The notes beneath the pieces are model-generated. The model had not been told where the DNA came from. It saw only the letters and a program-made list of their open reading frames with translations, and did no database searches. From assembly GCA_964589775.1 (NCBI GenBank), contig CAZPUN010000050.1:4102-36101 (forward strand): 32,000 bases of DNA, read 5' to 3'. This DNA is from an uncultured archaeon. GTDB lineage: Archaea; Asgardarchaeota; Thorarchaeia; Thorarchaeales; CAZPUN01. This document shows positions 14,317 through 25,361 of the stretch, one piece after another; the first letter of the stretch is position 1, and each line of letters opens with the position of its first letter. Made by a program: the position numbers and the translations under genes.

Positions 14317-14726
14317 ATTTATTACCTTATTTAAATATTTCTTTATGAGCCACGTTTTCTAAAATATTTATGCACCATAGTGTATTAGCCGTTTGGAATG
14401 ATTTACAAATGATCTGCGAGAAAGTATCGCTTTAGAAAACGGTGGGTAATCGCTTAGGTATTCATAATATGTAGGCTCGAAGCACTAAATCAAGTAATTT
14501 TGAGGACGGATGGCGACTTGCGTTTATTGCATCTAGGGCATTCTTGAGAAAATCGGAATGATAAAGTTCTTGAGGGACATGGTAAATATAAACGTAAAAT
14601 GACTATTGCGAGTCTATATGCAGTCATCTCACATCTCAATGCGAGGTAGATGTCTGATGAACGAATACAAAAAATTGGAAATTTCAAATGATTCAAGTCA
14701 CAAAAAGTAGAGGATGTAGAATAAGA

Positions 14727-19742: not shown

Positions 19743-20119
19743 TCAATTTATTAGTTTTATGCTATTTTCTTGGAACTTAAACATTGGCATGATTTTTATT
19801 TCCAAATAAATAATCAAACGAAATGTATGAAATATTACTCTAAGTTCATGAATCTTTTATAAAAACGATCTAATTATTGAATGTACATTCGATAAATATA
19901 TATTTGAGATGTATAATATTAGCTGACATATTGTTCATTTTCGGTTTTCCTGTGAGTTTAAAATTTTCGATGGCACAAAAATATAAATGGGCTAATAATT
20001 TTCAAAGAATAAAAAATTTTTTTCGTAATCTTTATTAGTTCTTATATTATATAACTATTTGCTAATGGTAATCATTAGTAGAAAGATAGGTATAATTATC
20101 GAATCATGGAGGAGAAAAA

Positions 20120-20857
20120 TTGAGGATAAAGATTGTCCTCGGGGTCAAGCAACAAGGTTGTATTCTTGGTTTTGATTATCAAGATACGATATCAAAGATG
20201 ATATTGAACTTCATACAAGAATATTCTTCATCATATGGACGGCAGAACAATCCGCTCTTGTCATTTGGGCAGTTAATGATTCCTGAGCGGAGCATTTCGA
20301 ACGAGGGGATTCAGATTCTCGGTGAAAACGCATATCTCTATATTAGTTCTCCAAATTCAAAACTTCTAAAGGGAATTGCAGATGGATTGAATGAGCGGAG
20401 CACATTGAATTTTAATAATGTATCATTTGAAATTGAGCAGATAGTTTTTCTAAATGATCCGGTTATTGAAGAATCGGCATGGTTCACGACACTTTCGCCA
20501 GTTCTTGTTAGTGTTATGAAGAACATTAATGGTAAGATGAGATTATGGAATATTGGTCCGGACGATCCATTGTTTGAACGAACGCTTGTAAGCAACTTAT
20601 ATCGTCGATACAAGCGGTACTATGGTCGTCTTCCGCGGGATCGTAAATTCATCATCGAGCGAGTTCTTAGTCCGAAGCAAAAACGCATTCGTGTAAATAA
20701 CTATTATTATCGTGCATACTTAATGGGGCTTCAAGTTCAGGGGAGCAGTGAGTTATTAAATTTCGCATATCAAGCCGGTCTTGGTGAGAAGACACATTTG
20801 GGCTTTGGGATGCTTGGGCTTCTTAAGTTCAGATCTCAAGAATCTGCTGCTGAATGA
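20120..20857 (+). CDS. cas6: Solo CRISPR-associated Cas6-family protein, possibly catalytically inactive
   Basis: LYISSP, FTTLSPV, L..NL.RRY and C-terminal G-loop AYQAGLGEKTHLGFGML; TTG start after GGAGG. No array or other cas genes in the window. Confidence 0.9.
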   Translation: MRIKIVLGVKQQGCILGFDYQDTISKMILNFIQEYSSSYGRQNNPLLSFGQLMIPERSISNEGIQILGENAYLYISSPNSKLLKGIADGLNERSTLNFNNVSFEIEQIVFLNDPVIEESAWFTTLSPVLVSVMKNINGKMRLWNIGPDDPLFERTLVSNLYRRYKRYYGRLPRDRKFIIERVLSPKQKRIRVNNYYYRAYLMGLQVQGSSELLNFAYQAGLGEKTHLGFGMLGLLKFRSQESAAE

Positions 20858-20927
20858 GTAAAATTATCGGCGAAGGTTTTCCCGTTTTGGGGGCCTTTCC
20901 TGCCGAATTTTATTTTGTAGTACTCAT
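20854..20927 (+). other. Long imperfect RNA hairpin overlapping the cas6 stop codon
   Basis: ATGAGTA(20854-60)/TACTCAT(20921-27), TCGGC(20867-71)/GCCGA(20902-06), GAAGG/CCTTT, and CCC/GGG closing a GTTTT loop; much more GC-rich than the flanking intergenic DNA. Confidence 0.65.
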
Positions 20928-22963: not shown

Positions 22964-24295
22964 TTAGCTCATGAGATATTTTTCGATCTGTTCTATGTTT
23001 ATGTTTGTACTATTTACTATTGGTTGTGCTCGTCCTTGTGGTTCTAGTTTTATTAGCATATCTGCAGAATTCATGATTTCATTCATATGAGTTACGATAA
23101 TTACCTGTCCTTGGAGAGTATCGATTGCCTTTGGCAGCAGTGCTCTTCTGATAGAGTCAAGACCTACACCCGGTTCGTCTAATATTAACACTGGCGGTTT
23201 TGGTACCTGGCTTACTCTATTTTGAATCGCATAAACAACACCGACTCTCAGTGCAAAATTTGCGCAAACATCTTCACCACCGCTTAGCTCATCTAGAGGA
23301 ATTTTATGCCCTTCATTGTCGATTAGGATAATCTCATAATTTTCATTCATAGTGAAATCGGTGTATCGTTCTGGAAATATGTTTGTAAAGATCAACCGAG
23401 CATATTTTTGTATATCGCTCATAATGTTATTTTTTATTATTTGAGGTATGTATTCAAGTTTTGATTTCAGTGTGTTCCATTCATTTATTTCATTGGATAA
23501 CTCCTGGATTTTTTCTTGCAAAGATTTAAGGTCAAATTGTGTTTTCGCAGACATAATGCTTCGATGGATTTCGTCCAGATTTCTTGATAGTGCCTTAATT
23601 TTGTAAGTCAATTCTGGGTCTTTGATCTTAGTTTGAATCTCCTCGACTATCTTTTTAGAATTTAAAATGAGTTCGCTTTTAGGTAGTAGATCGATTGCGA
23701 ATTTGGCTTTCTGAAGTAGGTCTCTTTCTTCATTTATCGTCTTTTTCAATTCTCTTATTTTACGATTTGCTTTATCTGCATATTTCAGATAGCTGTTCAG
23801 TCCAATTGACTTAAGAATAAGCTCCGCTCGTTCTTTTGGTGATGCGACAGTCATCTGAGTTATTTCGCCTTGTCGTACATAATACAAGGATGAAAACATC
23901 TTTTCGTCTATGCCGAGTATTTTTTCTATCTTATTGTTTACTTCTTTTGTTTTCGCAGTGATTGTTTTCCCATCCTCATTCTTGAGTGTAGCTGTAGATC
24001 TTGTTTTTCCTTTCCTATTGATAGTTCTCTTTACAATGTACAATTTATTATTGACCGGTGATATGAAATGAACTTTTACAACGGCTCTTTCTGCATCTCG
24101 ATTTATTAATGTAGTTAGGTCTCGAATATATCGTTCCTTTCGTTTGACTTTGCCAAACAATCCAAATTCTATGCCTTCTAAAATTGTGGATTTTCCTACT
24201 CCGTTTGGTCCTATTATTACAGTTGTTCGATCTGAAAAATTGAATTGTTGCTTCGTATATTGTTTAAAATTCTCTAACAATAGGGATTCAATCAT
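22964..24295 (-). CDS. rad50: Short Rad50/SbcC-like SMC-family ATPase (no zinc hook)
   Basis: LENFK, Walker A GPNGVGKS, Q-loop YVRQGE, signature LSGGE, Walker B LILDEP, VTH. ATG 24295 overlaps the end of mre11 (ATGATTGA). Confidence 0.85.
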   Translation of the reverse strand: MIESLLLENFKQYTKQQFNFSDRTTVIIGPNGVGKSTILEGIEFGLFGKVKRKERYIRDLTTLINRDAERAVVKVHFISPVNNKLYIVKRTINRKGKTRSTATLKNEDGKTITAKTKEVNNKIEKILGIDEKMFSSLYYVRQGEITQMTVASPKERAELILKSIGLNSYLKYADKANRKIRELKKTINEERDLLQKAKFAIDLLPKSELILNSKKIVEEIQTKIKDPELTYKIKALSRNLDEIHRSIMSAKTQFDLKSLQEKIQELSNEINEWNTLKSKLEYIPQIIKNNIMSDIQKYARLIFTNIFPERYTDFTMNENYEIILIDNEGHKIPLDELSGGEDVCANFALRVGVVYAIQNRVSQVPKPPVLILDEPGVGLDSIRRALLPKAIDTLQGQVIIVTHMNEIMNSADMLIKLEPQGRAQPIVNSTNINIEQIEKYLMS

Positions 24296-25361
24296 TTTCT
24301 TGTGCCCCCAAGATCTCTTGTGCTTTTGCAAGGATTTTTTCACGATTAATCTCATTTTCAAGAACTTTTTCTAAATTCTCCATGATATTCAAAGGATTTG
24401 AAAACTCAAATTCATTCTCGATATATGTGTATTCTTCATGCTTAAAATGTACAAATAATGGAGAAAATTCATTGTATATATTATCTATGATATCTCTAAA
24501 TGGAATTTCAAATTTCTTACTAAGTGGAATATTACCCGTAAGTGGTATTATGACGATTGCATCATTAATTTCATATTTTGAAAGAATTGCAAACAACATG
24601 TCCTGAAAGTTTTCAGGAGCTGTATTCTCTAGATTTATTCTTGAAAGTATGCTCACCGTTCTGATTCTAGGAATTTCAATTTCATTAATTTCGAGTCCCT
24701 GTGCATCAATATCGACGACATAAACCACTTTTCCTTCATGTTCCATTTCTAAATTTACGAAAGATGTCGAACCCGGTGAAAAGATACGCTTATTGCCATC
24801 ACGATATTTGGAATGAATATGCCCAACTCCCCAGTAATCAATTTTTGGGAGTTCTTTATCTGCTAATTCTCTAATGGGACTTGCATGAACTAATCCAATA
24901 TTTATTTCGCCGTTTGGCTTTATTTGTGAAAGCCTATCCTGAAGATGTATTCTTGCTACCCACGGTATTCCCCAAATTTTTACAATTCTACCATCGTATT
25001 CCTTTTCCACGGCTTCTATGTTTCGGCGTTTTAGAAAAACTGTAATGAACTTCTCATGTTGAAAATAATTTAATGGTGTGTTTAGTGCGTTTTCGTAAAT
25101 GGGGAGGTCATGGTTTCCTGGAATGATATACAAATCCGTGTCATTATATTCTTTAAAAAACTTTAATGTATCATTAACTGAGATTACAGGCGGGTCCCAT
25201 GAATCAAAAAAATCTCCTGTATGAATGATGAAATCTGGAGATTGCTTAATGCAGGTTTCATAAGCGCGTTCAAAATTCTTTTGGAAATCTTTTCTGCGTT
25301 CTTCTAGCCCAAATTGCATAAGACCCAGGTGTGAGTCAGTAATATGACAGAAGCGTACCAT
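24288..25361 (-). CDS. mre11: Mre11/SbcD-family nuclease
   Basis: DSHLG, HTGDFFD, PGNHD, VH, GHIH and PGS phosphoesterase motifs. Confidence 0.9.
   Translation of the reverse strand: MVRFCHITDSHLGLMQFGLEERRKDFQKNFERAYETCIKQSPDFIIHTGDFFDSWDPPVISVNDTLKFFKEYNDTDLYIIPGNHDLPIYENALNTPLNYFQHEKFITVFLKRRNIEAVEKEYDGRIVKIWGIPWVARIHLQDRLSQIKPNGEINIGLVHASPIRELADKELPKIDYWGVGHIHSKYRDGNKRIFSPGSTSFVNLEMEHEGKVVYVVDIDAQGLEINEIEIPRIRTVSILSRINLENTAPENFQDMLFAILSKYEINDAIVIIPLTGNIPLSKKFEIPFRDIIDNIYNEFSPLFVHFKHEEYTYIENEFEFSNPLNIMENLEKVLENEINREKILAKAQEILGAQEND

Follow-up and report, generated by a model that had tools for sequence, protein, structure and literature searches.

A maintained, solo Cas6 without the canonical catalytic triad in an Asgard archaeal genome and its likeness to known non-catalytic Cas6 paralogues

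The cas6 gene and its 3′ hairpin

The window, by which we mean the whole 32 kb stretch of Asgard archaeal DNA that was analysed, carries a cas6 gene that is followed by a hairpin and a U-rich tract. The features of the locus are as follows:

20026–20119, + strand: upstream blocks shared with the sibling species; probable promoter and 5′ leader with GGAGG at 20108–20112 (putative functions)
20120–20857, + strand: Pyrococcus-type cas6 gene (245 aa) with a double-RAMP fold, lacking the canonical triad
20204–20254, + strand: former catalytic segment, residues 29–45, with L29 for Tyr31, a deletion at His46 and P45 for Lys52
20777–20809, + strand: glycine-rich loop, residues 220–230, with T225-H226 replacing the usual Asn-Ser
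20854–20927, + strand: 74-nt element of the first-pass annotation, with outer 7-bp arms at 20854–20860 and 20921–20927
20867–20906, + strand: G+C-rich core hairpin of ~15 bp with bulges, equal in shape in the sibling
20908–20916, + strand: U-rich tract, a probable archaeal terminator that the sibling keeps

The cas6 frame is intact from its TTG start, which follows the GGAGG, and the G-loop of the protein is complete, as the first-pass annotation had stated. A profile search with TIGR01877 scored the protein at 137 bits (cut-off 58.65), and Pfam matches were obtained to Cas_Cas6_C and Cas6_I-A (PF01881, 97 bits; PF21350, 28.9 bits). With a score above the curated profile cut-off, two RAMP domains and a GhGxxxxxGhG loop, the protein belongs to the Pyrococcus-type Cas6 proteins. 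Its AlphaFold model has a mean pLDDT of 90.8 and is less confident at residues 40–42 and in the tail. The C-terminal half had been described as very basic, which turned out to be typical of the family: it holds 19 Lys and Arg residues against a median of 20, and its net charge of +9 (median +5) ranks 158 of 195 in the homologue set.

The genes around cas6 encode housekeeping-type proteins (an amidohydrolase, Rad50/Mre11, an HTH protein and YdjM), and no arrays, repeat copies or other cas genes were found in the 32 kb, confirming the earlier description of a solo gene. Mre11 adjoins a short (465 aa) Rad50-like ATPase at 22964–25361. Outside the window, 2.8 kb ahead of it on this contig, there are a leader and a solitary repeat. 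The window also contains, at about 14412–14660, a dispersed non-coding element of ~250 bp, both ends of which form hairpins; other copies of it are located in the source genome (G000) at C27:30235–30450, C39:52000–52203, C50:904–1110 and C53:620–830. This element is MITE-like, with ~25 copies of one hairpin and ~15 of the other; no Y1 transposase was found for it, and two of its copies immediately precede a solitary CRISPR repeat.

It had been claimed that a 74-nt hairpin begins on the cas6 stop codon. The 74-mer does fold (−22.6 kcal/mol, z −2.8), and the outer 7-bp repeat exists in the DNA; however, it lies outside the minimum-energy fold with a pairing probability of 0.0 in a 210-nt context, and its arms are absent in the sibling, whose cas6 stop is TAG. 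What is left is the core hairpin, which folds at −18.3 kcal/mol with a z that varies with the folded stretch between −1.9 and −2.8, and which ranks 10th in strength among 692 gene ends (top 1.5%). The sibling has a core hairpin of the same shape (z −3.6), and 38 of 55 positions in the hairpin region are identical between the two species while the rest of the spacer is gapped and diverged. The differences within the hairpin are one-sided and one bulge is shifted, and in two sequences such changes do not prove covariation. The annotation had suggested looking for a covarying 3′ hairpin in orthologues; of its element the sibling keeps only the 40-nt core in front of the U-tract, covariation was not seen, and other solo cas6 genes mostly do without a hairpin, none being present 3′ of those in L134, L106, L066, L069, L073 and L122 (−2.2 to −3.4 kcal/mol).

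Several identities for the hairpin were considered. A SECIS element with selenocysteine readthrough was ruled out, as the sibling terminates at TAG and has lost the AUGA, and a riboswitch or other known RNA was ruled out because Rfam gave no match at E values up to 1. Comparison of the hairpin with the genome's repeats gave no copy within 13 or 10 mismatches, and the longest word it shares with the arrays is 10 nt. It was not among the 30 best genome matches of a profile of the dispersed hairpin element, and the sibling hairpin matched that profile at its foot only (E 1.3). Scans for sigma-70 promoters and bacterial terminators gave chance-level results; these models are bacterial and unsuited to an archaeal host, where the usual termination signal is a U-tract, normally without a hairpin (PMC8716108). 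The source genome has many other strong hairpins. Taken together, the cas6 hairpin reads best as a conserved 3′-end structure of the cas6 mRNA.

Catalytic residues, selection and distribution

The catalytic residues of PfCas6 are Tyr31, His46 and Lys52 (PMC3652601). A profile alignment to PfCas6 places L29 at Tyr31, a deletion of ~5 residues over His46 and P45 at Lys52, bearing out the earlier claim that the triad is lost, and the window Cas6 therefore lacks the three residues that mark an active PfCas6-type crRNA endonuclease. The Ser that follows the triad, 97% conserved in the family, is a Gly here, and residues 27–40 offer no basic replacements. All three triad residues are kept in 124 of the 195 homologues and in 8 of the 11 same-order proteins scored, and 17 of the 195 score as having none. 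The annotation had noted the lack of a His in the equivalent segment; the protein as a whole is not His-free, its sole His, H226, lying inside the G-loop. Active homologues mostly have Ser at this position; His is found in 6/195 homologues, among them all five Asgard solo Cas6 proteins, and the non-catalytic Thermococcales group has Arg, Lys, Gln, Ser, Gly or Asn. By motif correspondence only, H226 matches Ser228 of TtCas6A, a residue that contacts RNA (PMC3902920). Cas6 enzymes without the His can be active, the Sulfolobus Cas6 being an example (PMC3652601). Given this precedent and the presence of H226, we consider the window Cas6 to be likely, rather than certainly, catalytically dead.

Loss of these residues has not been accompanied by decay of the gene. 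The sibling species has a syntenic cas6 orthologue with the same neighbour order, and the two proteins are 96% identical, with a dN of 0.028, a dS of 1.08 and a dN/dS of 0.026 at synonymous sites that are near saturation. All 13 neighbours compared with the sibling are less conserved than cas6 (36–92% identity). Cas6 is thus maintained under purifying selection, a result that comes from an orthologue comparison of two species, the next homologue being at 36% identity; word-based homologue searches found no cas6 relatives between 36% and 90%. The neighbours' dS of 1.4–2.9 lies above that of cas6, and with two species an older gene exchange may inflate the apparent conservation. Three of the nine protein changes fall at residues 40–44, within the former catalytic loop and at the point of lowest model confidence, and long identical blocks are present upstream of the gene in both species. 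The 90% cluster of the window Cas6 includes the sibling's proteins, whereas nine true cas proteins of the source genome belong to 90% clusters of 1–3 members with 0 from the sibling's NCBI assemblies. Codons 181–210 of cas6 (20660–20750) are poor in synonymous changes relative to the sibling (3/20 in codons 181–200), and an RNA-level constraint on this segment is possible.

Solo Cas6 proteins with lost triads occur elsewhere. A PH0350-like protein (P0009, assigned by motif likeness) has an orthologue of 50–66% identity in 79 of 81 Thermococcales genomes (G400–G480; L040, L055–L076), and in L040 its gene is divergent from a proteasome ATPase gene. In G401, G422 and G440 the PH0350-type protein is the sole Cas6 found, and neither cas1 nor a DevR-type Cas7 was found; G401 and G422 still have small arrays. 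PF01881 matched in 35 of 400 genomes of the Asgard phylum, and among the readable matches the only other solo triad-less Cas6 is that of G061, a genome that carries a triad-intact Cas6 as well, again with no cas gene recognised next to it. Placement in the Asgard phylum follows from P0004, which bears the name Asgardarchaeia and has its close orthologue in G061, a genome from the phylum of the source genome. With one other case in 400 genomes, the gene allows no general conclusion on Asgard biology or on the origin of eukaryotes. Further solo proteins with triad losses are found in L038, L134, L106 and L108, three of which also have the G-loop His (L038:10001–10819, L134:7758–8501, L106:3918–4712); in L038 and L134 a small GTPase is the upstream neighbour. 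The same-order genomes G025 and G009 (L136:1329–2072, L137:4364–5134) have triad-intact Cas6 proteins with no recognised cas neighbours, which could possibly represent an intermediate stage.

The origin of the window lineage was approached with trees. AU tests rejected no grouping, be it with Thermococcales (p 0.54), with the other Asgard solos (0.82) or with the same-order operonic clade (0.23), and in the trees built the window Cas6 was never sister to the latter. A clade with P0007 (SH-aLRT 88–95) disappeared after removal of the catalytic and G-loop columns, and without these trait columns the lineage sits on a long branch at an open fork. Together, this case and the survey suggest that selection for upkeep, not debris, accounts for solo triad-less Cas6 genes, which may have more than one origin. 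In Thermococcales the copy is close to a core gene, and the genetic tractability of these archaea makes them suitable for addressing the question.

CRISPR content of the genome and possible roles

The first-pass annotation found no CRISPR or cas sequences in the window, and this does not extend to the genome, which has two array types together with I-A and type III modules. An array of 36-nt repeats is split across contigs C48 and C54, and arrays of 30-nt repeats lie at the contig ends of C61 and C64, the latter (C64:63000–63339) with unusually long spacers of 49–52 nt. The type III modules of C39:183–17200 are two in number and contain Cas10, and at their head is a second Cas6 with no significant similarity to the window Cas6; C36:17000–21600 has a Cmr module in which no Cas10 was seen, and C5:414–7074 a type I-A module. 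Neither cas1 nor cas2 was found in the 96.75% complete assembly, and a six-frame search of it found no other Pyrococcus-type Cas6 or remnant; a candidate cas6 remnant at the start of C5 was discarded because the match lacked significance. No spacers target the cas6 region.

The closest homologues in same-order genomes (29–34% identity) are mostly triad-intact, and several stand at the head of type I-B-like operons, next to arrays with repeats of the same family as the 30-nt repeat of C61 and C64. By this family likeness the 30-nt repeat would be cognate to the subfamily of the window Cas6. An exact search for this repeat in the genomes of other species returned no copies. The annotation had named processing of the genome's arrays in trans as evidence against its reading, and half of this was found: the genome carries arrays with a matching-family repeat, and a further Pyrococcus-type Cas6 was not detected in the assembly. 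Each of the two 30-nt arrays is cut off by a contig end, so an active cas6 may lie in unassembled sequence.

The 36-nt repeat also occurs as nine solitary degenerate copies with 3–11 mismatches (C26:4656, C30:5358, C34:16201, C40:13479, C44:5908, C50:224 and 1260, C53:225 and 869), and a copy of the array leader precedes those at C40, C44 and C50:1260. These repeats could represent arrays that are empty, or they could give rise to crRNA-like regulatory RNAs; no convincing self-target was found for them.

As the best explanation we tentatively favour a domesticated Cas6 that binds single-stranded RNA without cutting it and has a role in the host. A Pyrococcus-type Cas6 would have left its cas operon and then lost the Tyr/His/Lys triad, and the triad-less gene, transcribed as a unit of its own, would have been fixed and passed on vertically. 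Since both RAMP domains are retained, as are the groove that separates them and the G-loop, the protein most likely grips ~10 nt of single-stranded, repeat-like RNA in a wrap-around mode and does not cut it, and it may act as a chaperone or protector of host RNA independently of CRISPR loci. The hairpin and U-tract would mark and stabilise the 3′ end of the mRNA, with the hairpin probably not a ligand. The predicted fold, the missing triad, the solo setting, synteny and purifying selection are results of the analysis, while RNA binding, the absence of cleavage, host targets and the role of the hairpin are the parts that we infer. Conservation above that of housekeeping neighbours despite lost cutting residues suggests a re-used RNA-binding protein, and triad loss, synteny, the low dN/dS and the likeness to non-catalytic Pyrococcus paralogues all support the domesticated, probably non-cutting Cas6 proposed by the annotation, although H226 might stand in for the lost catalytic residues. 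The Thermococcales analogue behaves similarly to a core gene, persisting where no cas1, DevR-type Cas7 or second Cas6 was found. Against a host role stand the matching-repeat arrays in a genome where no triad-intact Cas6 of the subfamily was found, and the small arrays in two of the three cas1-less Thermococcales genomes.

An alternative that we regard as somewhat unlikely is a non-cutting CRISPR accessory in trans. Here the protein would bind pre-crRNA at the 5′ part of its 30-nt repeats, protecting it, handing it over to the I-A or III-B complexes, or competing with an active Cas6. The occurrence of this repeat family beside triad-intact homologues in same-order I-B operons is consistent with such a role, as are the crystallisation of PH0350 with repeat RNA (PMC3727216) and the known case of a Cas6 that is a negative regulator through competition (PMC12102369). 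However, cas6 is conserved well above its neighbours in a way that the genome's cas proteins do not share, and the Thermococcales analogue is kept where cas machinery was not found.

We find it more doubtful that the protein is still an endonuclease in which H226, K224 and basic residues close by form a rebuilt site, and that the 30-nt arrays are processed by it in trans, in the manner of the unlinked TTHA0078. It is the sole Pyrococcus-type Cas6 found in the assembly, its H226 aligns by motif with an RNA-contacting Ser (PMC3902920), the G-loop His is shared by all five Asgard solos and is rare among homologues, and both unlinked (PMC3902920) and His-free (PMC3652601) active Cas6 enzymes are known. 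On the other hand, the triad and the conserved Ser are gone and residues 27–40 contain no basic substitutes, and the G-loop position varies in the non-catalytic Thermococcales group. The 30-nt arrays themselves run off contig ends in a genome without detected cas1 or cas2, so their active cas6 may be missing from the assembly, or both repeats may be handled by the C39 Cas6.

A broader proposal, which we consider quite improbable, is that Cas6 was domesticated several times in archaea (in the window lineage, a second Asgard lineage and Thermococcales), and that the Asgard solos, with a G-loop His replacing the N-terminal one, are host RNA-processing nucleases or regulators that recognise structured 3′ ends, their own included. 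If this proposal were true, a CRISPR enzyme would have been turned into a housekeeping RNA-maturation factor.

Even less probable is that Cas6 binds the hairpin in its own 3′ UTR, for autoregulation or as a dedicated RNA partner. The annotation had proposed this binding, which finds no support other than the adjacency of the two. The strength of the core among gene ends, the shape kept by the sibling while the remaining spacer diverges, and the usual lack of hairpins at archaeal terminators (PMC8716108) would fit such a partnership. Nonetheless, the changes between the two sequences are one-sided with a shifted bulge, the hairpin has no likeness to the repeats, strong hairpins are common in this genome, most solos have none behind them, and the subfamily binds unstructured repeat RNA (PMC3727216). 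Lastly, a decaying relic of a lost type I-B locus, as the lost catalytic residues and the failure to find cas1 and cas2 in the genome might suggest, is effectively refuted by the intact frame, the conserved upstream region and a dN/dS of 0.026 at near-saturated synonymous sites.

Comparison with known Cas6 systems

Structures of non-catalytic Cas6 paralogues have been available since 2012, and we found no function assigned to them among the papers covered. Among the catalytic relatives, PfCas6 (3I4H, 3PKM), the M. jannaschii Cas6 (5YI6) and the same-order I-B Cas6 share subfamily and fold with the window Cas6 (TM 0.80–0.85), and the matching-family 30-nt repeat in the source genome is a further point in common with the PfCas6 group. 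Unlike these proteins, the window Cas6 has no triad and no operon. TtCas6A (TTHA0078) is likewise solo and unlinked to a CRISPR locus, with arrays elsewhere in its genome, and demonstrates that an unlinked Cas6 can be active (PMC3902920); it differs in being a member of a distant subfamily (TM about 0.55) with a catalytic His that cuts hairpin repeats. The Sulfolobus Cas6 Sso1437 also lacks the N-terminal catalytic His and yet is active, using Lys25, Lys28, Lys51 and Arg231, whereas the window Cas6 has no comparable basic cluster beyond K26 and R41, and the equivalent of Lys51/52 is absent.

The closest matches are the non-catalytic paralogues themselves. In both sequence (32% identity) and structure the best matches are PhCas6nc (PH0350; PDB 3QJJ, 3QJL, 3QJP) and PfuCas6nc (3UFC), with the window model giving a TM of 0.91 to 3UFC, 0.90 to 3QJJ, 0.85 to 5YI6 and 0.80–0.82 to PfCas6. 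Both paralogues are described as inactive proteins that bind RNA (PMC3727216, PMC3652601), and PH0350, which was crystallised with repeat RNA, is described as wrapping around this RNA in unstructured form (PMC3727216). In these proteins and in the window Cas6 alike, the Tyr, His and Lys positions are all replaced and the G-loop has a Thr where active homologues mostly have Asn, and the Thermococcales PH0350-type genes are also solo and strongly conserved. The differences are the other phylum, a longer deletion in the catalytic loop, His226 in the G-loop and the 3′ hairpin, as well as the neighbours, which are the amidohydrolase and Rad50/Mre11 genes here and a proteasome ATPase gene for the Thermococcales copy in L040. 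As in the Cas6nc proteins, the triad is lost while the fold is kept, and the gene is solo and syntenic among relatives (two species). The window Cas6 is therefore a maintained, solo, triad-less protein that resembles the known Cas6nc proteins, a kind of Cas6 that was itself already known.
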